A stretch of DNA of 56,310 nucleotides, the filler included, from Jimgerdemannia flammicorona (lineage: Eukaryota), in assembly GCA_003990765.1 (NCBI GenBank). It is 3 parts of 3 records of this genome, joined end to end, with 100 filler letters (N's around TTAATTAATTAA, not from the genome) between each part and the next. Parts side by side here need not be neighbours in the genome. Positions count along the whole stretch, not along the records: positions 18,817 to 37,516 come from RBNJ01002132.1; 2 more parts are not named here. One strand, written 5' to 3'. The notes under the pieces are model-generated. The model saw only the letters and a program-made list of their open reading frames with translations, did no database searches and had not been told where the DNA came from. Of this stretch, positions 13,264 through 54,539 are shown one piece after another. How positions within the stretch are numbered: position 1 is the stretch's first letter; each line of letters begins with the position of its first letter. A program made the position numbers and the translations under genes.

Positions 13264-13304
<41 letters not shown>

Positions 13305-20541: not shown

Positions 20542-20728
20542 GCGTTATGTCAGCTCTTCTAGGAGAACGTCTGAAGAGAGTCAAAAAAATGTAACCAGAA
20601 ACACCTTATTTTGGGATGATAGAAACACATACTGGAAAAACATGATAGCTTTCTATTGGATATTAGCAGAATATATGAACAAATCCATTGATACATAAAA
20701 TTTATCAAACAATTTAGAAATAAAGATA

Positions 20729-22204
20729 TTAAACAAGATCTTTTATCCGATACTTGGATTGAAGCTCAGTCACGGCGGGGTACACCTTATCCGGGAGGTC
20801 AGTCCATGCTATCCCATGGTTAATTCCATTGACAGGTACGATTACTTTTATCCAGATGCAAAGCCACTACATCGCCACAACGAAGTACGACGCCAAAGTT
20901 GCAAGACCTTTCAGATGTCCATACACACCGTAAATTGTTCCAACACAGAAACACCCACGCCGATGACCTTCTCCTCATGATAGAATCGAAGTTAGTGAAC
21001 TCCTCACCCACCAACCCAATTTCGCTGTAGGTACCCTCGTTGAACATTCCAACGGACTCGACCACTACGTCCCATTCGCACAACCCTTCCGCAGTCGTCG
21101 TCCCGGGGACGGAGATCCGCACCGTCTGCCTCGTGGACGCCGGGGTTTCGGCAGAAAGCTTCACGACCTTGCCGTTATTCGAGACGACAACGCGCGAACC
21201 AACCTTTGAGCGATCCCACTGAGGATCTTGGCTCCATCGATTTTGACTTTTCGATCCCCGGACGGGTGCCCCGTTGGGCACACGGTGTTCTTGCATGCGT
21301 GGTGACAAAAGGCCATATAGTGCGGAGACGTCTCCATAAACCCGTCGACCGCCTCCGTAAGGCTCTTAAGGCGATGCGGGCACACAAGGGTGAAGTCCAC
21401 ATGCCTCACCATGTTCAGCAGCAACGAATTATTTCCTAGTCGAAATTATACTGCCGCATCCCGAGACCATACTGGCGACATCATGCAAGACATCATGACG
21501 CTCCGCAATATCGGGTCCAGACTCTTCGGCATGCGCCCAAACCCAGTCGACGATGCACAGCAACAGGTCGTATTCGGGGGTGACGAAGTCAGAAACGTAT
21601 GGTGCAGTGAAAAGCAGCTGAGGAGCCTCTTCGGAAAGATTTGTCAACTCTCCAATGGCAAGCTTGCGAGTGTAGAAGGGGTTGAGGAGCACGGCTTAGA
21701 GGTATTTGCTGGCATCACTACATAGGATGGAGGCGGCGGCTCCGTTGAGGAGGGTTGAGGAGACACCAAAATCGGTAATACCCTGGGCGCGCTCGAGCAC
21801 TATTGCCATGAGCTTTTGGAGGAGAAGGAAACTTGCTGCGCGGTAAATGTCTACCGCGATAGTGACGGTAGTGTCGTCGATCGATTCGGTATAAATGAAT
21901 CCGAGGATGACGGTGAGCTCTAGGGAGTTGATGTCGTGGAGGACGTTTCGCTGGGAGATACTCTCTTGCATGTTACCGTACAGCATTTCCTTGAAGACGG
22001 GACACCTTTGGGGTCACATGGCATTAATGAATATTAGATAGATCTCCAAAAGCCATTAGACACAATCAAGAAGTGATTGAACGCACCTGGCAGCCAGCAC
22101 AGCACGGCAAGCACCAAGTTCGACGTCATCGGCGCAGACAATGGTGACATCATGGTAGGTAGTGTCCGTCCATATCTAAGACCACTGTTGGATTGTACGT
22201 CCAT
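20729..22204 (-). pseudogene. Pseudogenised tandem copy of the BTB-SPRY gene
   Basis: Collinear with 23583-25093, including the intron. It has a net 22-bp deletion in exon 1, an in-frame stop after SKYL and further frameshifts, and appears in the track as ORFs 21696-21986, 21429-21692, 21161-21424 and 20820-21308. Confidence 0.88.
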
Positions 22205-23582
22205 GTTTAGTCTTTGGGTTACAGCTTTGCTTGGGTTACCGATTCACGAGACGTCGACAGATGGCGCAGTGGGTTAATTGTCGATAATAAAAAGGGCAGT
22301 ATGCGCGGTGTGCCAGAAATTGTTGGATCTAGGTTAAAGAAGTCAATTACGGTATAAATTTATCCCATCAATTGCCCTTCCCACTGACGGATGTCGGGGG
22401 CTTGTTTTCATTTTCGTAGGATTATTTTGACTCCTTGTCCTCAACCTATTCGACGTCCTCATTCCACCTGCCCTTGGCTACACCCCGTTGAGAAAGAAAA
22501 TAACACCTCCACAACATCTAAATATCCGCCGTACACCGCCTACGTTATATACTTGGTTAATCTCAAGCACGATGTAAAACCTATGGCGCTTTCCGGCAAT
22601 GGATGTACAAAAAGAAGAACTTTACATTCGACGAATATCATGAGCGGTGGCTGTTCGTGCTGCTCTCTATGTAACAACTGGCAATGAGAATGTCGGCATA
22701 AAAATAATTTGGTGCTCAGGGCATTTTACACGACATTAGTGGGGAGCCGGGCAATACTATTTATTGGCGTCATCCATAGTTCTCAGTTATAAGAGTTAAA
22801 CCCAAGTTTATCGTATCCGTTGCCGATCAATAAAAACATGCTCGAACCAACTAGCGACATTTTTGAAGTTCACTGCGGGTTTTAATTGATCGTTTGTAAT
22901 TCAATATTAATATTTGGAAACCTTGGATGCATCAGAGGAATTGTCTCCGTAGAGCATCATTCGAAAAACCAAAAGGTGCACCTTCCACACATCCGACACA
23001 ATTTTCTCGGGAATCTGGATCAAAAGGTCTTCGATTGTCAAGATGCAAAATGCGGCTGATCCGGCGGCCTCATCAAGGTTAAAATTCTAAGTTCATCGGC
23101 ACAGCTTTATCAGCAACATAGGTGTGGACTTATAAATCGGAGATGACGCTCTGACGGTTATTCACGTATATACCAATATTTTGAGTACAGGCTGTGACTC
23201 TATATCACGTTCGGCTAGCTTACTATCGTAGCTCGGTTGCGGCAACAATTTGCGAGTTTGTATGTCAACGTAATATTTTCAGATTAAAAGGTGGGACTAA
23301 TACATAACCACTGCGAGCCGCGTAAGCTGATCCAACAGAACCTTTCCAGAATTTTTAAGCGCCACCACCAACAATTTGTATAAGTTTAAAAGGCAGAAAA
23401 TTGAGAGCAGAATATTCGGAACCTGAATAATTTTGTATTGGAAAATATGAACAAAGATAAAGAAACATGATAGACTTATAGCAGAGGGTATGAAAGAATG
23501 CATACATGAATCCATAAATACCCATCAAACAGCTAAGGAATGAACGAAGAGTTGCGTTCACAAAAAGGAGGCGAGACTAAAA

Positions 23583-25093
23583 TTAATCATGATCTTTTAT
23601 CCGATACTTAGATTGACCGCTTAAGGTCACAGCAGGATACACCTTATCTGGAAGGTCGGTCCAAGCAATCCCTTGGTTAACCCCATTGAAAGAAAGGGCA
23701 CAAGTACGGTTGGCTTTATCCAAATGGAAGGTCACCACATCGCCACTCTGAAGCATTGCGCCATATTCACGTGTCTCTCCCGACCCCCATACCTGCCGAA
23801 AATCTTCCCAACACTGGAATGCCCACGCCGATGAATTTTCCCACATGGTGCCATTGAAATTAGTGAACTCCTCGCCTACCAACCCAATCTCTGCAAAGTC
23901 CACCTCGTCGAAAAATCCGATGGACTCGACCACTACGTTCCATTCGCAGAGCCCTTCCTGAGTCCTCGTTCCGGGGACGGAGATCCGCGCCATCTGCCCC
24001 TCGGACCCAGGGGTTCCGGCAGAAAGCTCCACCACCTTGCCGTCGTCTGAGATGACAACGCACGAATCGACCTTTGACCGATCCCACTGAATTTTTTGAC
24101 TTTCTCGATTTTGACTTTTTCGATACTCGGACGGGTGCCCCGTTGGGCACACGGTGTTCTTGCATGCGTGGTGACAAAAGGCCATGTAGTGCGGGGACGT
24201 CTCCGCCAACCCGTCGACTGCCTCCGTTAGACTCTTTAGGCGATGCGGGCACACAAGGGTGAGGTCCACATGCTTTAACATGTTCAACAGCAGCGAATTA
24301 TTTCCTAGTCGAATTTTACCGTCGCATCCCGGGTTCATACTGGCGACATCACGCAAGACACCACGGCGCTCCGCAACATCGGGTCCCGGTTCATCGGCAT
24401 GCGCCCAAACCCAGTCGACGATGCACAGCAGCAGATCGTATTCGGGAGTGACGAAAGTAGACGCGTAGGGTGCAGTGAAGAGCAGTTGGAGAGCCTCTTC
24501 GGAGAGATCTGTCAACTCTCCTATGGCGAGCTTGCGAGCGTAGAAAGGTTTGAGGAGCGCGGCGTAGAGGCTCTTGCTGGCCTCACTCCATGGGATGGAG
24601 GCGGTGGCTCCGTTGAGGAGGGATGAGGATACGCCAAAATTGGTAATATCTTGGGCGCGCTCCAGCACCATTGTCATGAGCTTTGGGAGGAGAAGAAAAC
24701 TTGCTGCGCGGTAAATGTCTACCGCGATAGTGACGGCGGAGTTGTCAATTGATTCGGTGTAGATGAATCTGAGGATGACGGTGAGCTCTGCAGAGTTGAT
24801 GTCGTGGAGTACGATTCGGTGGGAGATGCTTTCTTGCTTGTTACTGAACAGCATTGCCTTGAAGACGGGACACCTTTAGGATCATGTGATCTTAATTAAT
24901 ATGAGATGGATCCCAAAAACCATGAGACGCGATCAAGAAATGAATGAACGCACCTGGCAGCCAACACAGCACGGCAAGCACCAAGTTCGACGCCATCGGC
25001 GCAAACAATGGTAACGTCATGGTAGGTAGTGTCCGTCCATAAGGAGGCAATGTCGTCCTTGAGGCTAAGGCCACTGTTGGATTGCACGTCCAT
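23583..25093 (-). CDS. BTB/POZ-SPRY (B30.2-like) domain protein, putative Cullin3 substrate adaptor, 476 aa; exons 25093-24954 and 24873-23583
   Basis: BTB: DVTIVCADGVELGACRAVLAAR|CPVFKAML...ELTVILRFIYT...IYRAASFLLLPKL. The 80-bp intron 24953-24874 (GTGCGT...AAAG) restores the frame. SPRY C-terminus: EWNVVVE...EIGLV...GDVVTFHLD...FNGVNQGIAWTDLPDKVYPAVTL. Confidence 0.88.
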
Positions 25094-26852
25094 GTTGAGT
25101 TTTTGATTACGGCTTTGTTTTGGGTTGCGGATTCAAGGTACGGTGACCGGTGGCGCAGTGATGATGACCCTAAATGTGACGGTTCCACAAAGATTGATCG
25201 ATAATAAATGGGACGGGATACGAATGCTTTGTAGAAGGAACGTGTTGGATCTATATGGGCGTGTTTGCTAAGGGATTCACTATGAAATGCGTCCGGGGGA
25301 CCGGGAGAGCCAGAAAGGCGACCTGTCGTAAGGGGATTCCTGGGATATCCGATCCCAGCTTGAATGCATCCGTTCTGAATGTACGCTGCTTTCAGATTTC
25401 AGACTGCCAAACTAGACTGCCTTTTTTTTAAAGCGGAAGAATCCAGTATTTATACATAATTTCCTTACTAAAAATACTACATGTATATGGGGATCCCGCA
25501 TAAGTCCGTTTATGCGCCCTTCGGCCCGCCCGAGATGTATTTTTAGCGGTTTCAACCTGCGTAGAACCGTTTCCGAGCCTTCTTCGCGTGATTCTAGATT
25601 ATCGTTCCACGGCCTGATTTGGACGCGTCAAATTTTGAGGCACGTGCCCTTACACTAAATAAAGGACTGGCCTGTTACACCTAAAAAAGTTGGATCTATC
25701 GAGACGCAAAGCAACTCTGTTTGCCGATTACGCGCTTCTTGGCTGAAATGTACGGAATTCCGAAATCTCAAATCTGAACGTTAGTATATTCGGCAAGCAT
25801 CCCATATTTATACATTATTTCTGACTAATACTTTAGCCCACGTAAGGTCATATAAAAAGGCCTCGAGAGTCGGACGGCTTGGCGTAGTGTCCGCACTAAA
25901 TCGCATCCTCGTCGTCACCGCCAATCCCGCGGGTGGTAATGATGGTAATTTCGGTGGACTCTAGGCCGAGCTTCTTGCCGATAACAGGGAAGAGGCAACG
26001 CACATGCTTGGCCTCACGTGATGGGACGAACGCGGTTTTCTCGGGTCTGGTCGGTGTGTTCTTAGTAACGATATGGCCTTCCATGGAGAGATCATACCGC
26101 TGGCTGATTCGACTTTTCCTCGAACTTGATCTTGTAGTTGACCCGGGTACCCATTACGGTAGCTGCTGGTACTGTTAGACCTTTGTGGTCGAGCTTGCAG
26201 AGAACTAACTTGGAACCATGCAGATTATTTTATGAAGAAAATTATTTTATGAAACACGCCGAACGTATGATGGTCTTGGTGATGGTGCGGCCCATTTTGG
26301 TGGTCCCTGCGAAAAAAATAAAATAAAGAGATTAATCGATGTATTAATATACGAGATAATCTAGAAACTATTTGAAAATTGTGGTGTGGACCTTGGTCTC
26401 GTCGATGGCTCGATTGGGGCGGCGAGGACGAGGCCGACTGGCGGGTAGGGATATATGTACGCGCGATTAGCTTGCGCGTGACGTATTCAGATGATTGTCA
26501 TTGGTGCCTGTCTGAAGCGGCTTCCAAATCATATGAGATTTCCGATGCTACGAATGCTTGATCAGCCTGAATTTATCGGCCTACGTACCTTACATATATC
26601 TATCTCCGTCGAAACGACTAATAATATATGCAGCCCGCATATGCACGATATTCCAACTAACAGTTTTACTTCCTATCTGTTAGGATTTGCAACTCGTTTC
26701 AAGTAATTTGTGGCTTAGGCTGACGATGACGTCGCAATATCCATGTCTTCATCGTCAATTACAATGCATAAAAGTGTGAAACATGTAATAGCTTGCTCTT
26801 TGTAAAGTAGAATATCCTATAATAATTACAATAGGTTATGAGCCCTGCTTTG

Positions 26853-27040
26853 TATGGTGCGCCATCAGGGTCAAAACTATCAAATCAAAAAAAAATGGAT
26901 TGATGATAAAAATTTGACCAAAAAAATTAGATTGATGAATTTAATCAAAAAAATTAGATTGATGATAAAAATTTGACCAAAAAAATTGGATTGATGAAAT
27001 TTGACCAAAAAAAGTGGATTGACAAAATTTGATCAAAAAA
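26853..27040 (+). repeat. Left TIR and subterminal repeats
   Basis: Units of aaaaattggattgatga(taa)aaatttgacc, reverse-complementary to 36920-37151. Confidence 0.9.
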
Positions 27041-27691
27041 GTAGATACTTATATTACTCAAGGCTATATATATATTACATGTGTCAAGGTGCATCACATT
27101 TATCAAGACACATCATATCTATTAAATCATTCCATTCAGCCATAAGATCAATCAGATTCAACTTACATAAGTTTCTATTCTCTTTGCTAAATTTCTATTC
27201 CCTTCATCAAATTTTTATTTTCTTTATCAAATTTATTTCTATTCCTTTCTATTTTCTTCACTAAATTTCCATTTCCTTTGCTAAGATTCTATTCCCTTCA
27301 CAAAGTTTCTGCCTCCACTGTTCTCTCTACTGCTGATTTTCCATTTTTTCTACTATCAAGTTATTGTTTTCCTTCTCTCTATTATCAAATTTCCATTTTC
27401 TATTCTCTTCACCACCAAAGTTTCTATTGCCTCTACTGCCAACAAGTTCACTCTGTTCTCTGCAAAAAGGGTTTCTTTCCTCTACTATTAAGTTTTCATT
27501 TTTCAATCCTTACATCATATTTCCATTTTCCAATCACTTCATAGTCCCCTCTGCCACCAAGTTCTATTTCCCCTAACACCAAGTCTCTATTCACCCTACT
27601 GCCAAGCCTTTGGTTGCTAGTATATCTGAGCAGATAAATATAATTTATTTGAGCATATTACACATTATACATATAAAAGAGACAGTTAGTA

Positions 27692-30251
27692 ATGAGTCAG
27701 TTCTGTGAATATAAGTGTTATAAAACTTGTCATGGGCTCTCAGATTCTTGCTGAGAGATATATCTATAGAAAAGGACTTCACTTAGAAAGACAATCTTCA
27801 ACTTTGTATGCATTTATAGATTGCTATCATATGTGACAATTTCTGCCAAAAAAAAGAAACCCAAAAATCCCTCAACAAACTAAATATTATTTGCATTTCT
27901 TTAAGAAACATATTTCAGAAGTCTTTCCTGATATTTGGTCATAGATCCTGAATTGCTACAACATTTGGTAGCTCTTGCTCAGTACCCATAAATATAACAA
28001 ATCCTCCAGTAGCTACAACAAAGTGAACCTGTTCAGCAAGCTGCAAGTAATACCTCTATGTAAAGTATATTTATAATAATTATATATTCTAATATTTTCT
28101 AATATGATATGTCTTTTTTTTTTTTAAAAAAAAAAAAAATTAGTTTATTATCTCATCATTTACTATCCTATGTGATGATAGTGCTGTAGTAGTCAATGAA
28201 TGTATATTGACTTCATTTCAATACAAGGACCTCCATATATATGGATACAACTTTGTCAAGGTCAAGAATTATACTATCCTTCACCCTCTTCATACACCTG
28301 ATACTGAATTCAATACTGAGACCTTAATACACTTCTTTGGTAAGGGAAAATGGTATATTGAGGCCTGAACCATAATGCTCTTACCATCTGTACTTGCTGC
28401 ATCTGAGGAGGATGACAACTCTGGTAAGTTTTAAAGTTCTCTACTGATTTAAAGCTAAGATTGATTATATATATATAAGTAATATAATATAATATATATT
28501 GTATGACTAATTCTAATATTGATATTTTAATATCAAGTTATCACTCCTATTGAACTGCTTTGCAAGTTTTGCAATCAGCTATATTACAATATTCTGAAAT
28601 ATACTTTATATGAAACTATTTGTCCAAGAAATACTAGTGTCAGATATATATATATTTTTTAAGAATTGCCAGTTTTTCTTGTGTATATAATTTATAAAAT
28701 AATTATTTATAATTATATTTGATGAAACTACTGAATCTGAGCAATCAATAGTGATAATTGATGACAAAAACGATCTAACTGCTGAATCATCTCTCAGGTA
28801 ATAAGATATTATATATAATATAATATTTTATATATTATATTGATTATTTATTCACATATATAATTATATATTAGTTCAAGTCTTCCACTAATGGATGACC
28901 TTCTGACAGCTCTGTCAACTCTGGACTCATATGATACTGCAGAAAGCATTAACTCTGAAAGCAATAGTTGAGAGATAGCCTTTTTTGCCAATCTTACAGA
29001 CTCTTATAATGGAGAATTATTGATAAATTCACTGCAAACAATAAGGCATTTGGCTATTGATGCTGGACTACTGTACAATATATAAGATAATAGAATATTA
29101 GGATTTTAAATATGTATGCATTTCATTTTAAATACTTTAGTACATCATTCAACACTTTTTGAAGATTTATTTTAGTTTTATTCATCTCTGGAGTCCAGCT
29201 CAGATATACTCTGCTTGGTCAAAGTTACTGTCATAGGTGAATCTGCAGTAGACCAGGGAGGAGTTGCACAAGAAGCCTTTTAAATTACATTAGACCATTA
29301 TATTGAACAATAGTCATCTTTGATGGAGGGCAATGAGAAATTTCTCCCATATACAGAAAGTTATTTGAATATTGACAAGCATGACTATTGGACCTTAGGA
29401 TGGATTATTGTGGCCTCATTTCTCAACTATGGACCTATACCTGATTGTCTATATCCTGCTTATCTTCTTTATGCTTGCTATGATTCGATTGGTCATGAAG
29501 ATGTATTGTCATTTAGTAAGTGATATGGCTTCCTCCTTCAAGCACTAGACCTTACTGAAACAATAAAGGAGATATGGTCTGAATCTTTAGAGTCAGTTAG
29601 ATTTTATATTCTTCTTTATATTTTTTTTAATTATAAATTATTTAATTTAAAAAATTCTTTTTATCTAGATTGATATCTACCTTTGAAGAGCTTGGTATCA
29701 GTCAGAATATACAGAATATAAAGCATAAAGACAAGAATGAAGTTCTCTCATTGATTACAAAAACTCTTCTGATCTGGAAACAACAACCTGCTCTTGACCA
29801 GCTTGTTTCAGGATTCAATATCAGAAACTTCATCAATAATTTCATTCATCAACCACAAAGATTTCAACCAATTGCATAACTTTTTTACTCTTCAGTTCTC
29901 TACAGTAAGGAAGATATTACTAATGCAATTGATTGGCCATCATGCTCAGCTCCTGGAACAAGGATCAGTATTTGTGTCCAGCTTTTCAAGGAGGTTCTCC
30001 ACAGATGGTCTACCAATGATCCTCAACTTCTTAGTCAGTTGGTGTAGTTCTGGAGTGGTGCATGAAACATTCTAGTTCAAAAATGATTGCAGCTTAACAT
30101 TCACTATTTTGGAGTAACCAGCTCATATTGGCCAGTAGCTCATACTTGTAGACCAATACTGGAAATTAGAGATAACTATGAAATAGGAGAGTAGCTTGCA
30201 GACAGCTTAGTTGCTGCATTTAATGAGGGAAGTATCATAACTCTTCTATAG
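27692..30251 (+). pseudogene. Transposon-borne multi-exon HECT E3 ubiquitin ligase (G2E3-like HECT), decayed; start approximate
   Basis: KVTVIGESAVDQGGVAQEAF (29221-29280); DYWTLGWIIVASFLNYGPIPDCLYPAYLLY; QQPALDQLVSGFN; catalytic-type motif WPVAHTCRPILEI (Cys at 30147-30149). AT-rich GT-AG introns, Cys-rich upstream exons, many stops. Confidence 0.8.
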
Positions 30252-31304
30252 TGTTTTATATAAACAACCTTTCATTCCTATATCTCTTATTCTGTATCTC
30301 TACCTCACATTTTGTTATACTTCAGTTATATTACTGTGATATTTGCTTCTTTGCTCTATATCTATCTTGCTGTTGTATCTCTGTATCTAATTATATTACT
30401 ATCTAGTATTTCTTTGCAGCATTATTATAACTCATATTCTTCTGCTCTATGATTATTTATATATCTTAACTCTTTATATCTCTGCCTCTGTGATTCTTTA
30501 ACCCTACCTCTGAAATTTCTTATATCTCTGATCATTTGCCTCTTTGCCCTATGACTCTTTGCATATCTGTACATTTTTTCTTATATCTCTTCTATATGAT
30601 CATCTGCCTCTTTGTCTCTATGATTCTTTGTATCTCAACTCTTACTTCTCTGGTCCTGCAATTTTCTACTATACTCCATGGTTCTTTATATATCTGTCCT
30701 ACAATTCTTTGTCTCTCTGCCCCAACCTGTATTCATAGACAGAATGAAACCTTGGACAAACATTACAAGGCCCTACCACAGCCTGTAAGCTATAGCAATT
30801 GCTACTGTATACTCTGTTTACTATTTAAGAAATAGGTACTAGATTGGATCAGATTGCTACCATATTGAACTGGGTCAGCCTAGTAATTCTTTTCATTTCT
30901 GTTCCTTTATTCTTTACCTCTATGCTCTGCAATTTCTTGCATCTTCGGCCTGCAATTCTTTGCTTCACTGCTTCTGCAACCCTTTGCCTCTCTGCTTCTA
31001 TGATTCTTTACATCTCTGCTATGCAGTTCTTTGCATCTCTACCCTGAAATTCTTTGTATCTCTACTCTATGATTTATTGAACTTCCACCCTATATTCACA
31101 CTTTATAAACTCACACTTACTTGCATCACTATATTCTGTATTTCTTTGTGCATCTGTATTCTTTGCAACTCCTAAACTATTATTTGATCTTGAACTAGCA
31201 ATTATAATAAATTCATACAGAATATGCTGTTGAAATGATTAGAAAATAGTGTGGCAAATGATTTTACACCATATGATTAAATGCTCATGTGATTTCGACT
31301 TTCA

Positions 31305-31960
31305 GATAAAACATGTTCAAACTCTCACCCACATTGCTCATTGCCAAGTCTAACTTACAGTTAGTAATATAAATATTTTTGCCACTATTGGATCCTTAGA
31401 CAAAATACACCAGCACTGCTCATTGCCAAGTCTGACTTATGGTTAGTGATATAAATATTTTGCCACTCTCAGATCCTCATATCCAAACTCTCAAAACGTG
31501 TTCAAACTCTCACCCACACTACTCACTGCCAGATCCTCAGACAAAATGCATTCAAACTCTCACCTGTACTACTCACTGCCAGATCCTCAGACAAAACACA
31601 TTCAAACTCTCACCCATACTGCTCACTACCAGATCCTCAGATAAAATACATTCAAACTCTCACCTACACTGCTCATTACCAAGCCTGACTTATAGTTAGT
31701 TTTTATAATCAGACAAAATACATTCAAACTCTCACCCACACTGCTCATTACCAAGTCTGACTTATGGTTAGTTTTTATAATCAGACAAAACACATTCAAA
31801 CTCTCACCCACACTACTCATTGCCAAGCCTGACTTATGGTTAGTTTTTATAATCAGACAAAATGTATTCAAACTCTCACCCACACTGCTCCAAATACCCA
31901 ACTCAGATAAAACGTATGTCCAAACTCTCAAGCCACACTGCTCATTGCCAAGTCTGACTT
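31305..31960 (+). repeat. Minisatellite array (45-72-bp units) inside the transposon
   Basis: About nine copies of (c)attcaaactctcacccacactgctca(t/c)tgcca, with alternative tails agtctgacttatggttag or gatcctcagacaaaa. Confidence 0.9.
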
Positions 31961-32229
31961 TTTTTACCATTATTGGATCCTTTCACTAACTATGAATCTC
32001 CCTCACTCTCTCAAAACCCAGCTCAAGTACCAAAATGACCTATATAAAACAAACTGCAAAGAAGTCAACCTTTGGCAATGTAGTCCAATGAAGCCTATCT
32101 CAAAGTATAATTATGACACCAACCAAGCATCCAGCTCGAGTGGCCAATATAACCAGACCATCTATTCAGATATATTATATAGAGGGGGTAAAAAAAAAAA
32201 AAAAAAAAAATGGATGAGATATATATATT

Positions 32230-33075
32230 TTCAGATGAATGTCTCTATGACTAAAGCCTTTTTTATTTTTTATTCTTTTGGATATTTTGGGATGTCTCTA
32301 TGATGGAAGCCTTAATATCTTTCCTGATGAATGTCTCTGTGACCAAAGCCTCTTTTATTTTTTATTCTTTGGATATTTTGGATAAATGTCTCTATGACTA
32401 AAGCCTTAATATGTATCCTCTTTTTTATTTTTATTCTTTTGGATATTTTGGGTGAATGTCTCTGGACTGAAGTCTTAATATCTTCTTTCCTGGTGAATGT
32501 CTCTGTGACTGAAGCCTTTTTTATTTTTATTCTTTGGATATTTTGGGTGAATGTCTCTGTAACTAAAGCCTTAATATCCTCTTTTTTACATATTTTTTAT
32601 TCTTTTGAATATTTCAGGTGAATGTCTCTATGACTGAAGTCTTAATATCTTCATTCCTGGTGAACATCTCTGTGACCAAAGTCTTTTTTATTTTTATTCT
32701 TTGAATATTTTGAGTGAATGTCTCTGTGACTGAAGCCTTAATATCCTCTTTTTTATTTTTTATTCTTTTGGATATTTGGATGAATGTCTCTGTGACTGAA
32801 TTCTTAATATCTTCTTTCCTGATGAACATCTCTGTGACCGAAGCCTTTTTTATTTTTATTCTTTAGATATTTTGAGTGAATGTCTCTGTGACTGAAATCT
32901 TAATATCCTTTTTTTTATTTTTTATTCTTTGGATATTCTCTGTGACTGAAGCCTTAATATTCTCTTTTTTACTTTTTATTCTTTGGATATTTCAGGTGAA
33001 TGTCTCTGTGACTGAAGTCTTAATATTCTCTTTTTTATTTTTTATTCTTTGGATATTTCAAGTGAATGTCTCATG
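32230..33075 (+). repeat. Minisatellite array (33-60-bp units) inside the transposon
   Basis: More than 15 copies of gtgaatgtctctgtgactgaagcc(ttaatatc)...ttttattctttggatattt. Confidence 0.9.
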
Positions 33076-33136
33076 TCTCTGCAACTAATACCTCAAAAAT
33101 TTTCTAATTTCTATTATCAAATTGACTTATTACTAG

Positions 33137-34014
33137 AATTCTCAAACCATTAATATTGGTTACATCAAGGGTACCATATGCTACCTGTGTGGGACCGAAG
33201 GCTGTATTCTTGAAGGATGTAGTATCAGCAACTGTTCCAATGCCATCTGCATTGAGAATGATCGCAGTCATCCATATATACCACTATTTATTACTGAAGG
33301 AGCCTGGCAATGTCCATCTCATGATGGTAAAGCTGATACAACTGTTTGGTACAATGGGAATTGTCTCATTGACATCCAGACACTTGAATTGGCATCATAT
33401 TTGGAGTGGGAGATCCTCTTTTCAGCAACTGGGTTGATATTTTCTTTGTATAGTATGTATACTTTTATATTTATATTTATTTGCTAATATTGGTCGGATT
33501 TTAGCTAATAAGATATTTTTTATCTATACAGCAAAACCAGATCCTTTTTACAAAGCACTCTTTTTCAACTAGAAATATGCTAAAGGCTGCTGCAATAAGC
33601 ACTGATCAGATGTAATGTTTTTTTTTTTTTTTTTTTTTTAATCTATTTTTTAATATTATATTCTAATTTAATATCATACTTTTTTCATCAAGATGGTGAC
33701 CTGAAGCTAGCAAATAGCTATTAATCCTGATACATACTAATGATGAGGGTAATTTATGGTTTGAGATCACTAAAGATGGATAGCCATGGGCAGTCCCATT
33801 GAATGAGGTATGTTTACAGAGTGTCTTTAGGTTTTTTATTAAATAAAATACTCATTTATTTACAGTTTTTTGCTAGCATCTTCACCAATAGCAGAACATA
33901 TAATATCAACATAGTTCTTTTCATCTGTGGCTCCCTAATACACTCTACCAAGTCCAATACTAAAAAGAAGTTGCAAGAGAAGACTGTCCAGGTAATAAAT
34001 ACATTGAAGAGATA

Positions 34015-34052
<38 letters not shown>

Positions 34053-34435
34053 TAAGTATCTATTTAAATATAATATATTTTATATATAGCTAATGATTAA
34101 ATTTATATTTATATAGACCAAATATTGGGAAAGTTCTTCTTTTTACACAACAAGATCTTCTACCAAATCAAATTGCTAGAGATATTCTGAAGATTATTGA
34201 GCAGTATGAGATGTGTGGTGTTCTATTTGTAGAAGCTGTATACCAAAGAGAGAATCTGTCAAGTCCTGTCTGGGTGTTGGAAAATAGTGAGGGAATATAT
34301 ATTCATAGAAAATTGTTATCTTGTTCTAAACATCCACATGTATACAAAAGTAGTCAGCACTATATGATGGTTAAATGTAGTGAGAATGATAGATATGTTG
34401 TTGAGATTGTAGAATGTAAGGCTTCTCGTAGATAA
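33137..34435 (+). pseudogene. Transposon-borne multi-exon gene with a PHD/ADD-like zinc finger, decayed; a possible upstream exon lies near 31992-32187
   Basis: 33179-33322 reads CYLCGTEGCILEGCSISNCSNAICIENDRSHPYIPLFITEGAWQCPSH. AT-rich GT-AG introns follow, and the last exon ends ...VVEIVECKASRR*. Confidence 0.6.
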
Positions 34436-34619
34436 TAAAAAATAAATGCAATTTTATTTATAATATTATTTGGTTGCAAATTTGATAGCTAATATCACTT
34501 TAAATTATATATAGTATAGCTAAATAATATAGATATTTATATATATCTTTATCCTTAGAGAAAGAGTTATTCTAGAGAAAAGAGTTTTCTTTCTAAGAAG
34601 CTAGGTGAATCTAGCATAA

Positions 34620-34777
34620 TAAATATATTAAATTTGAACTTGATTTTGTTAAGTTATTAAATTTTAAAGTTTGTCTCTAAATTTCAAATCAAATTGAACC
34701 TCAATTCAATTTGATTTGATTCCAATGACCCCTAATTCAATTTAATTGAAATTGATTCAATTTGTTTACAAGTACTA
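34620..34777 (-). mobile_element. Decayed member of the hAT-MITE family nested in the large transposon
   Basis: Reverse complement TAGTACTTGTAAACAAATTGAATC...GAATTGAGGTT resembles the left arm of 12260-12591 after CpG loss. Confidence 0.55.
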
Positions 34778-34799
34778 GGCTGAACAGTTCAGGTGATAT

Positions 34800-36560
34800 A
34801 TATTATCAAATAGTATGATTGGGCAATTTGTGTAAAGAGTAAAGAAAATAAAACAGCCAATGGCTCAGTAGAAATATGTGTAATCAGAATTCAGAAAGTC
34901 AGAATACAGGGGTCTAATACATATATGTAAACAAGAAGTATAAACTATTTCTGAATGATCAATATGAACTCCAATATAATCTCTGAAAATGCAAAGACTG
35001 AACTATTCCCAAGATACAAATACATATATCAGTATTAATTATATATAAAGTAATTGCAATACAACCTCTATTGCTCTAACATATATATCCATTCCCCAAA
35101 GATCAGATGCTGCCAATGGATCTATCTCTGTTTAAGGCTGCATTTTCATTTCATCAGAAAGGCCAATGTCCTGAGGAGGCTCTATTTCTTTAGATTCACT
35201 ACCTATGCCAACTGGACCATCCTAATCAATTCCAAAATCCTCATATATTCCTCCAAGTATATCAACAATATACTGGTCATCTTCTTTTGCATCAAATCAA
35301 TTCCGTTGCTCAGCATTAGATATGCCCAGAATGAACAACTACCATGGGGTTCTATTATTCTCCATTCTAATAGGATGTCAATTCCAACTCTCCATAAATG
35401 ATTGGAGGACAGCTTGAATTCAGGAAATATATATGAAGTGAAGACACTATATATGAACTGAATTGTCAATATTCAAGAATCCCTGATACTCAAGTTTATA
35501 AAAAATCTTAAAATAGCAATAAATTTAAAGTTAGAGAATATATTAAATAATATTATTTAAATATATATATATATATAATCTTACCTTATAAAATATTCTC
35601 AATGTGCAACTCCATACATCTCACCAAAATCATTCAATTCATTGATTATGTATAGATTTTCCAGCAATAAAACTGCTACAGCCAATTCCTCTTGTTTACA
35701 ATATAAACTCACAGACAGCATAATTTTCACCTCCCTTATCACCTCAAACTTAACTAGGACAACTCCAAGATCAGATTTCTTATAAAAATGCTTCCATCAT
35801 TATTTCTTTCTGATTATTATTGTTTAACATAAGAAATGTTATTGCCCGAGTCTTGCCATCAATACTGCCATGTACAACTATCTTCCATCTATCTAATCCA
35901 TGATATCCATCAATATGCCAGAGAGAGTTTGGTCGCTCAACCCAATAGACTCATCACTGAATACTCTCAGCCCATCATATAGAGACACCAATAGGATCAA
36001 TTACTTATAAGGCTCTTTGAATTCAATGTTGAGGAATATGTATTCCATGGCTTCGCAATAATCCAGTTAGTGTTTGCTCTCCACTATAAGCATCTGTTGT
36101 CTACTTAAGATACCTTATCATATTCTCCAGATCAGTATCAGAAATATCTGTCCATTGTCTACAGATTCTATAATCATGTAATTATCTCTTGATAGTTGAT
36201 TCTGAGACACCAAAGAGTCAAGCAATATCAGAATTTGTTAGACACTCTTCTACATTAGTAATAAGAATCTCCTTGCTGATAAGATAGTCTGGATGTCTAC
36301 CTTATCCAGTCCAAATAACTTGTGGTTGAATAGGTAATAGTGCAACTTCATCTGTATCAACATGAGTATGGATTCTAAGAAGCAGTGAGCAGGCTAAGTC
36401 AAGATTGCTCTGGATCAATAGATCAGATAATAGAGTTGTAAGGTGATTGAGATTATTTGCAAGCTGATTCAATTGAAGAAGGTGGAGGTCAAATTCAGGA
36501 TGATTGCCATTATTTCACAAGTTCAATGCATTTTGAGCATCTTGTATAATTTGGGAAGCT
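34800..36560 (-). pseudogene. DDE integrase-core transposase (IS3/IS481-related, IS3EU type), decayed, intron-containing; ends approximate
   Basis: VYWVERPNSLWHIDGYHGLDRWKIVVHGSIDGKTRAIT...PS*V*GDKGGEN...IAGKSIHNQ*IE*FW*DVW, then an intron starting at 35584, then FYKLEYQGFLNIDNSVHI*CLHF...WNWHPIRMENNRTP. Most stops sit at conserved Arg positions. Confidence 0.88.
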
Positions 36561-36795
36561 ATATGAAAGAAGTTCTGTATTTGATCCAGTTTGTGTAGTA
36601 TATATAGCTTACTTGGCTTATATGGTTTATATGACTTATATGTTTTGTATTTGCTCACAGCTTACTCAGCTTACACAGCTTGCACAGTTTGCACAGTTTG
36701 CATACCTTGTATAACTTGTATGACTTGTATTACTTATGGATGGTATAGATTATGTAGCTTATGTTAACTTATATATTTGATAGAGATTAGATAGT

Positions 36796-36900
36796 ATAAG
36801 CTTAAGTGGGTGGCATAAGCTTAAGTAGGTGGTATAAGTTTAAGTGGGTAGTATAAGCTTAAGTAGGTGGCATAAGCTTATGTGGGTGATGTAAGCTTAA
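36796..36900 (+). repeat. 19-bp tandem repeat, about 5.5 copies
   Basis: ataagcttaagt(g/a)ggtgg(c/t) repeated. Confidence 0.85.
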
Positions 36901-36919
36901 TTGCTTATAAAAAATCTAC

Positions 36920-37151
36920 TTTTTTTGTCAATCCAATTTTTTTGGTTGTCAATTTAATTTTTTTGATCAAATTTCATTGATCTACTTTTTTGATCAAATT
37001 TTGTCTATCCAATTTTTTTGGTCAAATTTTGTCAATTCAATTTTTTTGTTTAAATTTTGTCAATCTAATTTTTTTGGTCAAATTTTTATCATCAATCCAT
37101 TTTTTTTTTCGATCCATGATTTGATAATTTTGACCCTGATAGCACACTATA
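36920..37151 (-). repeat. Right TIR and subterminal repeats
   Basis: Reverse complement of 26853-27040, followed by GCTTTG. Confidence 0.9.
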
Positions 37152-37516
37152 GCTTTGTTACTATAAGTAAATATACTATGTCTATATAATATAATATAAT
37201 ATAAAATATTTTTCTCAAAATAAATAATAGAAAGATTTAATTATAATAATTGCCATATGAATTAAATATATATGAATTACAGTTTTAATGAATGTAATCT
37301 AGCAGATTACTGGAAATCTCAGAGATCAAAGATTACAATACTACTAAAAACTATAAAGTACTTATAGAGATTTTTTTTATACTTTTAAAATTATAAATAA
37401 GATTAATAATTAATATAATAATAATAAATAAAGAATTAAATATACTAAGAATACTATATATACTTAAGTTCAACTAGTTTATTATATCTCAAAGTCTTGT
37501 CTTTTAATCTTCAAAA

Positions 37517-37616
37517 NNNNNNNNNNNNNNNNNNNNNNNNNNNNNNNNNNNNNNNNNNNNTTAATTAATTAANNNNNNNNNNNNNNNNNNNNNNNNNNNN
37601 NNNNNNNNNNNNNNNN
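37517..37616. other. Artificial contig linker N44-TTAATTAATTAA-N44
   Basis: Same 100-nt structure as 18717-18816. Confidence 0.97.
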
Positions 37617-37658
37617 TTTGTTTGTTTTTTTTTTTTTTTTTTTTTTTTTTTGTTCTAG

Positions 37659-40600
37659 TCTGATGCCAATGAAGTCTACCAGCTCGCACATCGTATTAAT
37701 GAGACACTCCAAGACAAAGCTGAGCTTGACGAGAAGTTAATAAAGCAATTGTCATACCAGGCTTCTGGGGATCTCTCTCCGATGGTCGCTGTATTCGGCG
37801 GGTTGATTGCTCAGGAAGTGCTGAAAGCTGCCAGTGGCAAGTTCCACCCTATCCGGCAATACTTCTACTTTGACTCATTGGAATCCCTACCATCTAACGC
37901 TGACAAATTTACGGAGGACGACACGGCCCCGGTAGGTTTGGACTTGCGTTACGCCTTTGGGTAGACAGTAAACAGTGGACATCCGTATTTCGTCACATCA
38001 ACCTAACAATGAACATACATCACAATTCTTGCCTAGATCGGTTCCCGCTATGACGGCCAAATAGCCGTTTTCGGCCGCGAATTCCAGGACCGTATCGCTA
38101 ATACGAACGAATTCCTCGTTGGCGCTGGTGCGATTGGATGTGAAATGCTGAAGAATTGGGCTATGATAGGCCTGGGCACAGGACCCAGGGGTCGAATTAC
38201 GGTCACTGATATGGATACTATCGAGAAGAGTAATTTGAACAGGCAATTCTTGTTCAGACCTGCTGATGTCGGGGTACGTGTGATTGATTTACATGGATTT
38301 CCGTTGTGTTGGTACGGCTAGCGTATGTAATGGTGTTTGGTAGCGCTGGAGGATCGATATATCATGCGGTTCGATTACAGCTGATCAGAAACCATACTGT
38401 CGACTTCTTCAGAAATTGAAATCGGAGACCGCCGCTGCCGCTATTGCTAAGATGAATCCCGAAACCTTAGGTCATATCAAAGCACACCAAGACCGTGTCG
38501 GTCCCGAGACTGAAAGTATGATATCACATATTTCAGATCATTTTACTAAGCAACGACTACTTTCTTCATTGGAATTTTCACTTTTGGTCATGCGTAAGTG
38601 AATGAACCAACTAAAACGGAATTGTATCCATCATTTCAGACGTGTACGATGATGACTTCTTCGAATCCCTTGACGGTGTTACAAACGCTTTAGATAACGT
38701 TGATGCCCGTGAGTAACAAATTAGTACAGACAACCGCATTTTTTTTTTCTTTTCTTGTTTTGATTTGAGTTATCATCTTGACATTGTATGGCTTTTATAA
38801 CGCTATGATCTTTTATGCATTTGCAGGCAAATATGTAGATAGGCGTTGCGTTTACTTCCGTAAACCGCTGCTCGAGTCCGGCACCCTCGGCACCAAGGGC
38901 AACACGCAAGTTGTCATTCCATTTTTGACCGAGTCGTATGGGTCGTCGCAGGATCCGCCAGAGAAGTCCATTCCTATCTGCACACTCAAGAATTTCCCCA
39001 ACGCAATCGAGCATACCATCCAGTGGTCGCGTGATCTGTTCGAGGGTTTGTTCCGCCAGCCAGCAGAGAACGTGAACCTTTACCTTAGTCAGCCCAACTT
39101 CATCGAAACGTCGCTCAAACAGAGCGGTAATCAGAAGGAGCTGCTCGAATCGCTCCGAAATTTTCTTGTTACGGAAAAGCCCCTGTCATTTGACGAATGT
39201 ATACACTGGGCAAGGTTGAGGTTCGAGGAGTTCTACAACAACAACATCCAGCAATTGCTATTCAACTTCCCGAAAGACTCCGTTAGTTTTTTTTTTTTTT
39301 TTTTTTTTCCCTTTTTCGGGCTCAAATGCGGGGCGGGCGGGTGTGTGTGGATGGGGAATGCATTGCTTCTCAATCATTTGCCCAAACACATGTTCCTAGA
39401 CTAACTACGTGTGATGTATTTTCAGGTTACGTCAACTGGTACTTTATTCTGGTCCGGCCCCAAGAGAGCACCCGAACCGATACAATTCAATCCTGATGAT
39501 GTATGTAACCCATACATTGCCGTCAATGATGGTTAGTTCCATTTTATTAAACAGACTGACTAAATACTAACTCCTTTTCGATTATTCCAGGAAATTCACA
39601 TGGAGTTCATTGTGACCGCTGCAAATCTGCATGCATTCAACTACGGCCTCAAAGGGGAGACAGACCGAGCCTATTTCCGCCGTGTTCTTGCGGATGTAAT
39701 TGTGCCCGAATTCTCGCCCAAAAAGGGGGTCACAATTCAAGTTCAAGAGAACGAGAACGTGCAAGCTGGAGCGACTGCTGGTAAGGATTCTCAATTCCCG
39801 ATTATCAGATGCAGCTGGTGTAGTTGAAGGGGCCTTGTTTGGTTGAATGAGGAATGTTAAAGAGAACCCTCTTTCATCACCCTGTATTTTTCCAGATCAA
39901 GACGAATTGGACCAGATTCTCACTTCCCTTCCACAACCGTCCACATTGGCGGGTTTCCGATTGAACCCGGTGGATTTCGAGAAGGTATGCCACTGTTTTC
40001 CGGATTTTGAATTCCTCAACGTTCAGTTTTAGTGTCAATGTCGTGGACAAGCATCAAAGGTTGCTTTCGTTAACTAATTTTCGTTTTTCTTTCTTCACTC
40101 AGGATGACGACACCAATTTCCACATCGACTTCATCACAGCTGGATCCAACCTGCGTGCTATTAACTATGGCATTGCGCCCGCCGACCGCCACAAGACTAA
40201 GTTCATTGCCGGAAAGATCATTCCTGCTATCGCCACCACAACTGCAATGGTAACCGGTCTTGTATGCTTGGAACTGTATAAGGTAAATTATATAACAAAA
40301 ATTACACACGCTTGACCACGCTCTTATAACAGAACAAAGCTCTAATCGCAACCGTCTTTTTTTGCTGAAACAGATCATCGACAACAAAAAGGAATTGGAG
40401 GCGTATAAGAATGGCTTCGTCAATTTGGCTTTGCCGTTCTTCGGGTTTTCAGAACCGATCGCGATGCCCAAACTCAAGTATCACGATACTGAATTCAGTT
40501 TGTGGGACCGTTTTGATGTCAAGGGTGACTTAACGCTGCAAGAATTCCTTGATTACTTCCGGAATGAACACCAGCTTGACGTGACGATGCTTTCGTGTGG

Positions 40601-41018
40601 CGTGTCCATGCTTTATTCGTTCTTCATGCCCAAGAAGAAGCTGGAAGAGAGGAAGGGAATGAAGTAAGTGGAGTGCACTCGTGTGATGAGTTACTTAATG
40701 CCGATCGTAATAATCCACCGCGTATGTCAATTGTGCAGAGAAAATTGTCTCATTTGCTGTGAATATTTATCATCGCGACCAGGATGTCCAAATTGGTCGA
40801 GAACGTCTCGAAGAAACCCATCCCTGACTACGTAAGGGCTCTCGTGATAGAGATATGCGTGAATGACCGTAGCGGTGAAGATGTTGAGGTTTGTATTCTT
40901 AATGAGGAACTTTGTTGCTTCTGTCCATATATCAGTCGCGGCTCTACGTCGAGTGACTCACTTAACATTCTGGCTGATCATGTAGGTACCGTATGTCCGC
41001 GTCTCCATCAAGTCATGA
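37659..41018 (+). CDS. UBA1: Ubiquitin-activating enzyme E1, 5'-truncated by the contig edge. Exons: 37659-37931, 38037-38273, 38413-38515, 38640-38708, 38827-39281, 39426-39500, 39591-39780, 39896-39984, 40103-40282, 40374-40663, 40783-40888, 40986-41018
   Basis: [59 protein letters not shown]; catalytic Cys in [48 protein letters not shown]-terminal UFD ending [10 protein letters not shown]. All introns are GT-AG. Confidence 0.97.
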
Positions 41019-41463
41019 ATACGATCGTATGCCAACGAGGTTCTAGCTTTCTTTTTGTCGAATTCTACCTTCCCCAATTATTTTGGACATTCTCTTATTT
41101 TGTATATGTTTGCTACATTTACCTCGAGAATAAAATTTGTGTGGTGTGGAAGATATGATATGTTTTAAAGTTTTACGTCCTCTCTAATCTCTTGGGGTGC
41201 ACGTGATCCAAATTCGCATCATCAGTAATTGATGTATCGATATCCTTCATATTCGAATGACTGTAAAAGTTCGTTTGCAAGGTTGTACTTTGAGTGCTTG
41301 GCATTACAGCAATAGCAGGGAAGGGGTTAGCAATCAGCAGCTAGAATAACTGATGCTCTAGACAGCAATATTTGTAACTGCATTTGTATCTCTTTTCTGT
41401 ATTATATACTTGATTCTTCTTGCTGGACATTGGGGATGGATGCATTTGATTGTGCTGTGCAAG

Positions 41464-41560
41464 TAGTGCTTTTAAATATGTAAATCAAATCAATTTAATT
41501 GAATCAAATTGAGGTTGATTTGAATTGAATCAAATTAAGAATTTTTTAGCAGATTTTTTT
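41464..41560 (+). mobile_element. Left arm of a decayed hAT-MITE-family copy
   Basis: TAGTGCTT...aatcaaattgaggttgatttgaattgaatcaaatt resembles 12260-12330. Confidence 0.55.
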
Positions 41561-41670
41561 TTACTTGAACTATTTGAAGAGAGTTAAGTTACAGGCATAT
41601 CTTTTTATGAAAAGTAATATATTAAATAGTTTTCACTTCATCTTCTTGAATATATTTAGCTAGAAGTAAG

Positions 41671-41672
<2 letters not shown>

Positions 41673-41716
<44 letters not shown>

Positions 41717-44690
41717 GACTCAAGTTCTATAAATTTTTATTAGAAGAGAACTTAGACTATATATCAAAACTCTCTCCCACTTCTATCCCAAACACTATAC
41801 TAGTAAATATTCAACACTGTCACTCTTCCTATCAGAGATATATAGTGACCATCCTATCTCAAAAGAGTGCTTCCCCACTCTATCACTACTCTCATTATTC
41901 ATATGACAGCAAAGAGTTATATACTGAAAAGTAGATCTCCAGATAATGCACAGCCTCTCCCATAGAGATAATTGTTCTAATGATGTCCCCACCTATTATC
42001 TCTTCCTCTAATACTAAGGTCTCATACTTATGCCAGTTAAGCTTAGTACTCAAGTATCCCTCATACTACTCTACTGCTTCTTTCACTACTGCAACATCCT
42101 CAACTAACCTTAGCCCAACTGCCATATCATTAGTAAAGGCCCCTATCTTCTAATTAACCCCTAGAATATCCAATCCTCTCATCTTATGCCATATTCTATC
42201 CAAAAGAGACTTCAGGGATAGTACATAAGAATTGGTAACAGTGGATCTCTCTATGACACTCCTCTATTTAAAGAGAATGAAACTCTTCTGTACTCATTTA
42301 TTATAATTACTACTTGACTCCCTTTCAGTAGACCAACTAAGGCCTGTTGGACTCCAGGGAGGACTCCAATGTACTTTAGTACTCCTTTCAACTATACTCA
42401 TTAGACTCTATTATAGGTCTTCTCTTGGTTCAAGAAAACCAGCTTTCTATCTACTCTAGTAGTATGAGTGCTCTTGATAATACCATGTACCCAGGCTATC
42501 TCATCTCTAATTAGATATCTTCTTACAAATCCTCTCTACTCAGTTCCCAGAATCTATTAAGCCACTCTCTATAGCCTAGCTACTAGGATCTTCATGATTA
42601 GTTTACAATCTATATTCAGAAGTATGATCAGCCTCTAGTTCTTCCACTTCTCCCTTCTTCTCTTATTCTTAAACAGCAGAGCTATAAGACTCAAGCTCTG
42701 CCCTCCAATTCATGCTCCAGAGCTTATTACTTTATCATACATTGCTGTTATTTTCTTCAGAATCAACTCAACTCCTGCTATCTTCTTTCAAAAATCCCAC
42801 TATAAGCTATTCTCTCATAGTATTATTCTGGAGCTTATCATCATCAGTATCTGCTGAATCTCTTCTCTTTGGATAGCCACACCTAAGTTATCTAAGCCTG
42901 CTGCCAGATCAGAGTACTATTCCTCCAAGTGCCTATCAATATCTATCTCCTCCATCCCTCTATCCTCCTTGCTCTATAAATATCTCCACCATCTACTCAA
43001 CTGATCCAGAATCTCTGGTACCCTTACTACTAACTCCCCAGTCTCATCCAAAACCCTCTCCCATTACTACCTTACTCTCCTCATCTATAGAAGCTATGAC
43101 AAAAACTTGGTTGACCTTTCTTCCTCCTCCAAACTCTGCCACTACAGCTGGGCTGCCATGTCTTTAATCTATAGGTCCTCCTCATATCTCAATACATCTA
43201 CCTCTAGCCTGATCTACTGTAATCACTAATTCTCATTCTTGCCATCCTTCAGCAGATCTACCCAAGTCACCAATAACCCCACCAATCTCTGAGAGACTCA
43301 CCTTACTCACTTCTTCCTCTGAGTACTCCACATCCTTCCCACCTTCTTCTAGTACTATTGTACCTTAGATTTCAATCTTATTTAGCAATCCCCAATCCCC
43401 AGCTTCTCTGCTCACCAATCAAGAACTCTGAAGCTAATATCTACCACTCACACCTTCTATAGGGAGGCCTCTCCTAGTAAGGAGATATTCAGTTATCAAT
43501 ATTCTAGTTCCTCTCCACTTCTCTCAAAACATCTCCCTCTTAGAAGACCCCAATAATCTGACCATAGATACCAAACAATTTCCAAAGTCCTCCAGATATT
43601 AACTCCCCAGCAATCAGTAGTCAATATCCAGTCAATCTTTGAGCCCAGTCTCACTACTCAGTGGGTAAAAACCCCATCTAAGCCTCCTGGCATCTACTAA
43701 AGAGCTCAGACATTTGATTTCCTCTCAGGCTTCTATACTACTACTTCTATCTGCCATCTCTCTTTCTCCATCAGTTCTGTCTATCTTTCTATTATATACT
43801 ATATTAAAGTTCCCTCCTAAACAATTAATACCAGCCTCCACTAATGCTCTAGACTCTCATAGCTCTTGAATTCATTTCACTCTCTCCCCCCTCTCAGCTG
43901 GACAATAACAAGACTCAACCATTAAGGACCTCTAGCCTGGTCTCTTTCAAACTCCCCACACTACTCTGCTCTCACAGTATCCAATATCTCTAATGTCCCC
44001 CTTGTTCTTCCAAACCATAATACTTATACATCCTCACCATACAGCCATATCACCCCATTCCTTTGTTCAGTCCAGAATATCTAAGTCCTCATTACACCCA
44101 ATATCCTGTAGTAGGAATAGATCTGCTTCTATTTTCTCCAGCTATCCAAAGATATTTTGAAGCCTCATACTCTATAGTCTATTGATATTCAAAGATAATA
44201 TTTTAGTTATACTGTTTATATTTAAAGAAAAGTTATCTACTCTACAATTCTATGCTCACTATATCACCAGTAATATTAAGATTCCTCTCAGCCTCCAGTT
44301 TATCCACCTCTTCCTACTGAGTCTCCAGTACCTCTAAGATCTCCTGACAATTCATACCATCTACAGCCTCTATCTCTATTTGGTACTTCTCATACATTAT
44401 CTGCTACTTTGCCAGCTCTTTTCTTAGACCCCACATATATACAGCCCTATTATTCACAATTACCAGAAATACTGCCTCTCTGTCATCATCTATCTGATAT
44501 GTCTTAATCTCTAGCAATACTGCCATTATCTTATTCTGAAGTTTTCTTAGCACCTTCTCACCATACAGGATTTCACCCCAGTATCTCTTGCTCTGTATCT
44601 AGAAGTTCTCTCCCCAGCTCCTCAGCTGCCACATTCTCAAGTATTTTTCACAACTATTTCTCCTCAACCTCAGCCTTTGTCACTCTACAG
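41673..44690 (-). mobile_element. Decayed non-LTR retrotransposon (LINE, L1/Tx1-like: APE endonuclease plus RT) with poly-A tail
   Basis: Minus strand: KILSLNINRL...ADLFLLQ (APE start, about 44200); KN*RLIILLNIDCK (RT region, about 42620); AFTNDMAVG (decayed ADD motif, about 42130). The 40-nt poly-T at 41673-41712 on + is the 3' tail. Strongly CpG-depleted. Confidence 0.8.
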
Positions 44691-54537: not shown

Positions 54538-54539
54538 CT

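Follow-up and report, generated by a model that had tools for sequence, protein, structure and literature searches.

We analyzed a 56,310-nt window of the Jimgerdemannia flammicorona genome (GenBank assembly GCA_003990765.1) and describe here a decayed 10.3-kb DNA transposon whose features fit the IS3EU/GingerRoot type and which carries, in addition to its transposase gene, a divergent gene with a HECT ubiquitin ligase domain. The window, meaning the whole stretch of DNA that was analyzed, consists of three contigs (positions 1-18716, 18817-37516, and 37617-56310) that were joined artificially through a linker with stops in all six frames (N44-TTAATTAATTAA-N44, at 18717-18816 and 37517-37616), and adjacency across these joins is not real. 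The element occupies 26853-37151 and lies, together with both of its target-site duplications (TSDs), within the part taken from RBNJ01002132.1 (18817-37516).

The termini of the element are well defined. A perfect 6-bp TSD, GCTTTG, can be read directly outside either terminus, at 26847-26852 on the left and at 37152-37157 on the right. The left terminal inverted repeat (TIR; 26853-26887, plus strand) starts with TATGG (TATGGTG...), and the right TIR (37117-37151, minus strand) ends with CTATA (...CACTATA). Each arm measures 35 nt; complementarity between the two is 89%, and the differences within these first 35 nt are transitions. Inverted pairing between the two ends continues to 198 nt (82.8%, E 4.6e-52), well beyond the TIRs, because both ends carry an array of the same 28-nt unit in mirrored arrangement. 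Tandem-repeat analysis placed 5.2 copies of this unit at 26888-27040 (plus strand) on the left; the right array, a mirror of the left, spans 36946-37116 (minus strand), with 5.1 copies at 36946-37086. These 28-nt arrays are probably binding sites for the transposase. A separate 19-nt unit is repeated 5.6 times at 36792-36900. The initial annotation had described TIRs with TAT...ATA ends, mirrored subterminal repeats, and a GCTTTG duplication at this locus, and every one of these features was recovered. Since the perfect 6-bp TSD surrounds the TIRs, the 10.3 kb was inserted as one unit.

Self-comparison of the window revealed no second copy of the element within its 56,310 nt. A 108-nt stretch at 34601-34707, between an open frame at 34097-34432 and the 3' end of the transposase gene, matches 12357-12463 with 77% identity on the opposite strand, and the outside match may be a piece of some related element. 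Two further matches to the element outside its limits, each of at most 45 nt, are found near 41.7 kb.

The transposase gene is encoded on the minus strand in two exons. Exon 1 (35585-36499, with an approximate 5' limit) contains a helix-turn-helix (HTH) region and the DDE core, in which the motifs WHIDG, GDKGGEN, and HNQ.IE.FW.D (dots for stops) are legible. A 78-nt phase 0 intron with GT-AG borders (35507-35584, GTAAGA..TAAG) restores the frame, and exon 2 (35020-35506, with an approximate 3' limit) contains the end of the rva_4 core and a C-terminal tail. Among 108 stop-to-stop frames of at least 38 codons, the only one to pass a Pfam cut-off was an rva_4 match at 35783-35950 on the minus strand (70.4 bits). 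With stops read as X, rva_4 was matched with 137.1 bits over 35599-36499 (profile positions 1-114 of 194) and with 56.4 bits over 35020-35500 (positions 125-190 of 194), and the whole minus-strand frame reached 183.4 bits. Weak HTH matches (E 3e-4 to 1e-2) precede the DDE core, and the Pfam scan detected no zinc-finger (HHCC) family in the transposase. Twelve database proteins of 469-523 residues are homologous to it (E 1e-53 to 2e-38, 36-45% identity); PF24764 is present in all 12, and the named ones come from Tulasnella and Fundulus. The window copy and each of these homologs have the same spacing of catalytic residues, D-56-D-34-E counted from the WHxD motif. The minus-strand DDE transposase that had been proposed from its motifs is thus borne out by profile comparison.

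The copy is heavily decayed, and its decay is CpG-specific. The ratio of observed to expected CpG is 0.07 within the element, compared with 1.03 in its left flank. In 1-kb steps, this ratio drops precisely at 26853, from 1.26 to 0.05; it is 1.14 and 1.26 in two windows to the left and 0.00-0.13 in all 10 windows from 26853 to 36852. Repeat-induced point mutation was considered as a cause and rejected: the TpA/ApT ratio does not rise (0.83 within the element vs. 0.78 outside), and the loss is therefore attributed to CpG-specific decay. The transposase gene contains 25 in-frame stops, 13 of which stand where the 12 homologs most often have Arg. By codon, 10 of the 13 TGA stops, three of the eight TAA stops, and none of the four TAG stops occupy such positions, a distribution that fits CGA-to-TGA decay; the remaining stops require other changes. 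The earlier suggestion that CpG decay had broken the reading frames agrees with these figures. The whole 10.3 kb, including the HECT region, was thus acted on as one unit.

The second gene, on the plus strand, is oriented opposite to the transposase gene and converges on it. Its first coding block (28885-29591) runs in one frame from a candidate ATG and contains seven in-frame stops. A 77-nt GT..AG intron (29592-29668), read by eye, joins this frame to that of the last block (29669-30251), which ends with the stop codon and covers the complete C-lobe of a HECT domain along with part of its N-lobe, interrupted by five stops. The gene would thus have about 429 codons, with at least 12 in-frame stops in this copy. 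Its last 201 codons, read through the five stops, scored 26.0 bits against the HECT profile PF00632, for which the cut-off is 23.9 (E 8.8e-6), and aligned with positions 135-300 of the 306 in the profile. The catalytic cysteine, in an AHTC motif, is residue 168 of this 201-residue block and lies 33 residues before the stop. In HECT ligases, this cysteine is normally located about 32-36 residues from the C-terminus, so the gene has kept its native 3' end. The first block contains a stretch, VIGESAVDQGG..QEAF, which by eye resembles the start of a HECT N-lobe. The initial annotation of a plus-strand HECT gene inside the mobile unit is borne out by the profile match and the frame-restoring intron.

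Relatives of this gene are scarce. A HMMER search of 1.84 billion representative sequences returned a single relative of the HECT block at E<=0.001, a protein of 129 residues encoded on a 1274-nt metagenome contig (P0013; E 9.1e-5, 30% identity). This protein is itself a HECT domain (41.4 bits) and has the FWSG, P.AHTC, and IRDNY motifs in common with the window gene. When a joint profile of the two sequences was compared with the PDB, 53 of the 58 matches at E<=1, including the best 44, were HECT ligases, among them HUWE1 (2e-6), SMURF2, pub2, and E6AP; the other five were glucuronyl hydrolases (E 0.11). The AHTC motif aligns with the catalytic LPSAHTC of HUWE1, and HUWE1 is aligned as far as its C-terminus, where the C-lobe ends. 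Compared with HECT E3 ligases such as HUWE1, SMURF2, and E6AP, the window gene thus shares the C-lobe, the position of the catalytic cysteine, and a profile score exceeding the cut-off. In contrast, it is very divergent, its approximately 429 codons leave it without substrate-binding N-terminal domains, its N-lobe is undetected by the profile, and it is located in a transposon. As for a related metagenome locus, 483 pattern matches were obtained in a first scan and none was confirmed; one locus from a second scan (L001) was rejected as a chance match of 14 residues in a bacterial glycosyltransferase region.

A third gene, encoding a PHD-like finger, had also been proposed, completing a set of three decayed intron-containing genes. 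Two members of this set, the transposase and HECT genes, stand with one GT-AG intron each, and the third does not. At the corresponding place is a cysteine-rich open frame of 116 codons (33137-33484, plus strand), the status of which as a gene is unproven. It has seven cysteines within 50 codons, a density (at least seven) reached in just 51 of the 20,294 such windows of the element, and its half-pattern C-x2-C-x9-C-x4-C-x4-C corresponds to the first half of the PHD spacing. The pattern C-x2-C-x(7-21)-C-x(1-4)-C-x(4-5)-[CH] has its single instance across the six frames of the window here. The full PHD pattern, C4HC3, is absent from all six frames of the window, and for this frame we found no Pfam, PDB, or Atlas match and no intron; the mean predicted local distance difference test score (pLDDT) of its modeled fold is 50.3. 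Its cysteine content should be read with caution, as CpG decay is able to turn CGY (Arg) codons into TGY (Cys) codons. The further proposal of a chromatin reader paired with a ubiquitin ligase is not borne out, because the reader is backed by nothing beyond this cysteine pattern, and the roles suggested for the pair, anti-silencing or target-site selection, are speculative. Another open frame, of 112 codons and unexplained meaning (34097-34432, plus strand), had no Pfam match and nothing meaningful in the PDB, and its Atlas matches were sub-threshold (0.87).

The interior of the element also bears on whether its parts belong together. The 10.3 kb could be a composite, containing a nested second element or host DNA that became enclosed by a pair of IS3EU ends, in which case the HECT gene would be foreign to the transposon. 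Such an origin could account for the region between the HECT gene and the transposase gene, where about 2.8 kb of tandem repeats, with internal arrays of 23-, 50-, 72-, 66-, and 162-nt units at 30909-33072, are followed by the two unexplained open frames; self-comparison of the window also detected an AT-rich 90-nt inverted match between 28448-28533 and 35505-35592. However, the latter segment is simple TA-rich sequence within the transposase intron, the outer ends are flanked by the perfect TSD, the depletion of CpG is the same in each of the 10 1-kb windows, and no other mobile-element Pfam family was found inside the element in the stop-to-stop pieces, whole frames, or sliding windows. We consider a composite structure very improbable.

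The IS3EU assignment of the initial annotation agrees with published descriptions of this group. IS3EU transposons are described as having TA..TA termini and usually 6-bp TSDs, and IS3EU and GingerRoot are united with a bootstrap value of 99, the HHCC motif being absent in both (PMC10045372, Kojima 2023). Those of seven rust species have 6-bp TSDs, TIRs longer than 30 bp, and TAYGG..CCRTA ends (PMC12730594, Kojima 2025), and 12 Puccinia families listed in the supplement of that paper start with TATGG or TACGG, followed by A-rich repeats. In the present element, the 6-bp TSD, the TA..TA termini, the 35-nt TIRs, and a transposase with an HTH and a DDE core lacking HHCC all correspond to IS3EU/GingerRoot, and the right end, CTATA, is one C-to-T transition away from CCRTA. 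By its ends, TSD length, and transposase type, the element therefore fits the IS3EU/GingerRoot type and, more narrowly, the TAYGG..CCRTA families of rust fungi; we infer that Pfam rva_4 corresponds to IS3EU. A 13-base core of the TIR is absent from the supplement text of PMC12730594, which for long cells comprises their first 400 characters, and none of the 12 listed Puccinia family starts resembles the TIR past the first bases. The family is therefore different from the listed Puccinia IS3EU families.

The layout is close to that of the rust elements. In rust IS3EU transposons, the transposase gene is accompanied by an alpha-kinase gene in the opposite orientation, and TET-positive families have a TET/JBP gene between the two (PMC12730594). 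Like these elements (e.g., IS3EU-1_PGr to IS3EU-6_PSt), the Jimgerdemannia element has a 6-bp TSD, TIRs longer than 30 bp, a TAYGG start, A-rich subterminal repeats, and several genes, of which the accessory one is oriented against the transposase gene. Unlike them, it has neither an alpha-kinase nor a TET/JBP gene that we could detect, and the HECT gene takes the accessory position. No Pfam match to Tet_JBP or Alpha_kinase was obtained in the 108 stop-to-stop pieces, six whole frames, or 48 sliding windows of 250 residues, a search whose sensitivity is limited by the decay. With IS3EU and GingerRoot elements in general, it shares the 6-bp TSD, the TA..TA ends, the long TIRs, and an integrase-related DDE transposase without HHCC; typical members, in contrast, carry the transposase alone or fragments of host genes (PMC6839031; PMC10045372), whereas here a complete HECT-domain gene is present. 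Because multi-gene IS3EU elements with an alpha-kinase, and with TET/JBP in TET-positive families, have already been described (PMC12730594), the new point is the HECT passenger and not the layout.

Taken together, the locus is most safely described as a dead, autonomous transposon of the IS3EU type, the mobile unit of which includes a complete, divergent HECT-domain gene in the accessory position. Going further, we estimate a probability of about 0.7 that the locus represents a single inactivated copy of an autonomous DNA transposon of the IS3EU/GingerRoot type, with the HECT gene as its working passenger. Several observations weigh against this interpretation. The HECT score is 2 bits over the cut-off and was unrecovered in the whole-frame scan. 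The upstream block, presumed to be the N-lobe (about 28885-29598), has no Pfam or PDB match, and the AlphaFold model of the C-terminal block is uninformative (mean pLDDT 46.9). The result of the PDB profile comparison depends partly on P0013, and word-based searches with the HECT block, alone or aligned with P0013, came back empty of longer relatives. In addition, a single copy was examined, so the presence of the HECT gene is shown for that copy alone, and GingerRoot, the sister group, acquires fragments of host genes (PMC6839031, Cerbin et al. 2019).

The near-threshold score, the empty word-based searches, the undetected N-lobe, and the low-confidence model would all be expected if the HECT resemblance had arisen by chance in decayed, AT-rich DNA and no such gene existed. 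Against this, the Pfam match covers 166 profile positions above a curated cut-off, P0013 is an independent natural protein and a clear HECT domain with the same motifs, and the PDB matches are almost exclusively HECT C-lobes with the catalytic cysteine aligned. The distance from cysteine to stop and the frame-restoring intron likewise suit a real gene. A chance resemblance is thus largely refuted, and we give it hardly any weight.

A more substantial alternative is that the HECT gene represents a one-off capture of a host gene or pseudogene, as in Pack-type transduplication, and that it does nothing for the element. Host gene fragments are present in 22 of 77 intact GingerRoot elements (PMC6839031), we have seen only one copy, with no other in the window, and the rust IS3EU elements carry alpha-kinase and TET/JBP genes, the words "HECT" and "ubiquitin" occurring nowhere in the main text of PMC12730594. 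However, the gene is no fragment, as a spliced HECT domain lies between its candidate ATG and a stop located 33 residues after the catalytic cysteine. With its 26 bits and its one relative in 1.84 billion sequences, it is also remote from canonical cellular HECTs, and a recently captured housekeeping ligase would look different. Its position and orientation are those of the accessory gene of rust IS3EU elements (PMC12730594). Moreover, capture by GingerRoot is mostly accompanied by loss of the transposase, the DDE motif being retained in six of the 22 cases (PMC6839031), whereas here the transposase is present. Because the gene is complete, remote from cellular HECTs, and in the accessory position, we clearly favor a real accessory gene over a mere pick-up, and we regard a one-off capture as improbable, though still deserving serious consideration.

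The history of this copy can be outlined as follows. After its insertion in one piece, CpG was lost over its full length and stops spread through its genes. The transposase would have bound the mirrored 28-nt repeats and cut and pasted the element with a 6-bp stagger. The HECT gene, in the position that the alpha-kinase gene has in rust IS3EU elements, was probably a functional part of the unit rather than debris. While the element was active, ubiquitination by the HECT product may have been directed at the transposase or at some protein of the host, for example one involved in chromatin or silencing, thereby aiding escape from the methylation-linked silencing that eventually killed this copy, or tempering it. 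This proposal draws solely on analogy with transposon-borne TET/JBP (PMC12730594) and deubiquitinases (PMC9741609), and we hold it as a possibility that is rather unlikely to be correct in this form. The VTD deubiquitinases of Helentrons offer a parallel, as ubiquitin-system enzymes on mobile elements that are presumed to act on host control of the element; however, VTD enzymes remove ubiquitin and belong to rolling-circle elements (PMC9741609), whereas the present product would attach it and is encoded by a DDE transposon. Somewhat more doubtful still is the broader idea that a fungal IS3EU lineage keeps a minimal HECT ligase, in place of the alpha-kinase, as an accessory that counters silencing or regulates the transposase.

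The remainder of the window contains host-like and retrotransposon sequences. To the left of the element, in sequence of normal CpG content, are host-like frames with LysM domains (14255-14953, minus strand) and with BTB and SPRY domains (23586-24875, minus strand). On the right, only 359 bases of flank are truly contiguous with the element. On the next contig, past the linker, exons of a ubiquitin-activating enzyme E1 gene (ThiF, UBA_E1_SCCH, and E1_UFD; 38769-41155, plus strand) show normal CpG content; given the short true flank, this E1 gene need not be a neighbor of the HECT-bearing element. The following 12 kb or so (42001-54000) have an observed/expected CpG ratio of 0.00-0.13, like that of the IS3EU copy, and probably represent one or more decayed LTR (long terminal repeat) retrotransposons, since a Ty3-type integrase zinc-binding domain is present at 45273-45833 (minus strand). 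Finally, a retrotransposon gag/Ty3 capsid frame (54567-55265, plus strand) adjoins a frame with a dUTPase domain (55269-56024, plus strand, 117 bits); CpG is less depleted across 54567-56024 (0.29), and this may be a younger LTR retrotransposon encoding a dUTPase.

In the literature on IS3EU and on transposon-encoded ligases, we found no DNA transposon described with a HECT gene; Repbase and the complete sequences in Data S1 of PMC12730594, which may hold such a family, were outside this search. If the HECT gene proves to be a one-off capture, the locus is merely another dead transposon. If a fungal IS3EU lineage does keep the ligase as a working accessory, it would be, within the literature covered, the first DNA transposon with its own E3 ligase. 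DNA transposons of rust fungi are already known to carry TET/JBP genes, plausibly for anti-silencing, and their IS3EU elements carry an unexplained alpha-kinase (PMC12730594). A HECT gene in the slot of the alpha-kinase would add the ubiquitin system to the cargo of transposons and would offer a compact HECT without substrate domains for study. It would also suggest that the accessory slot of IS3EU transposons is a swappable module.

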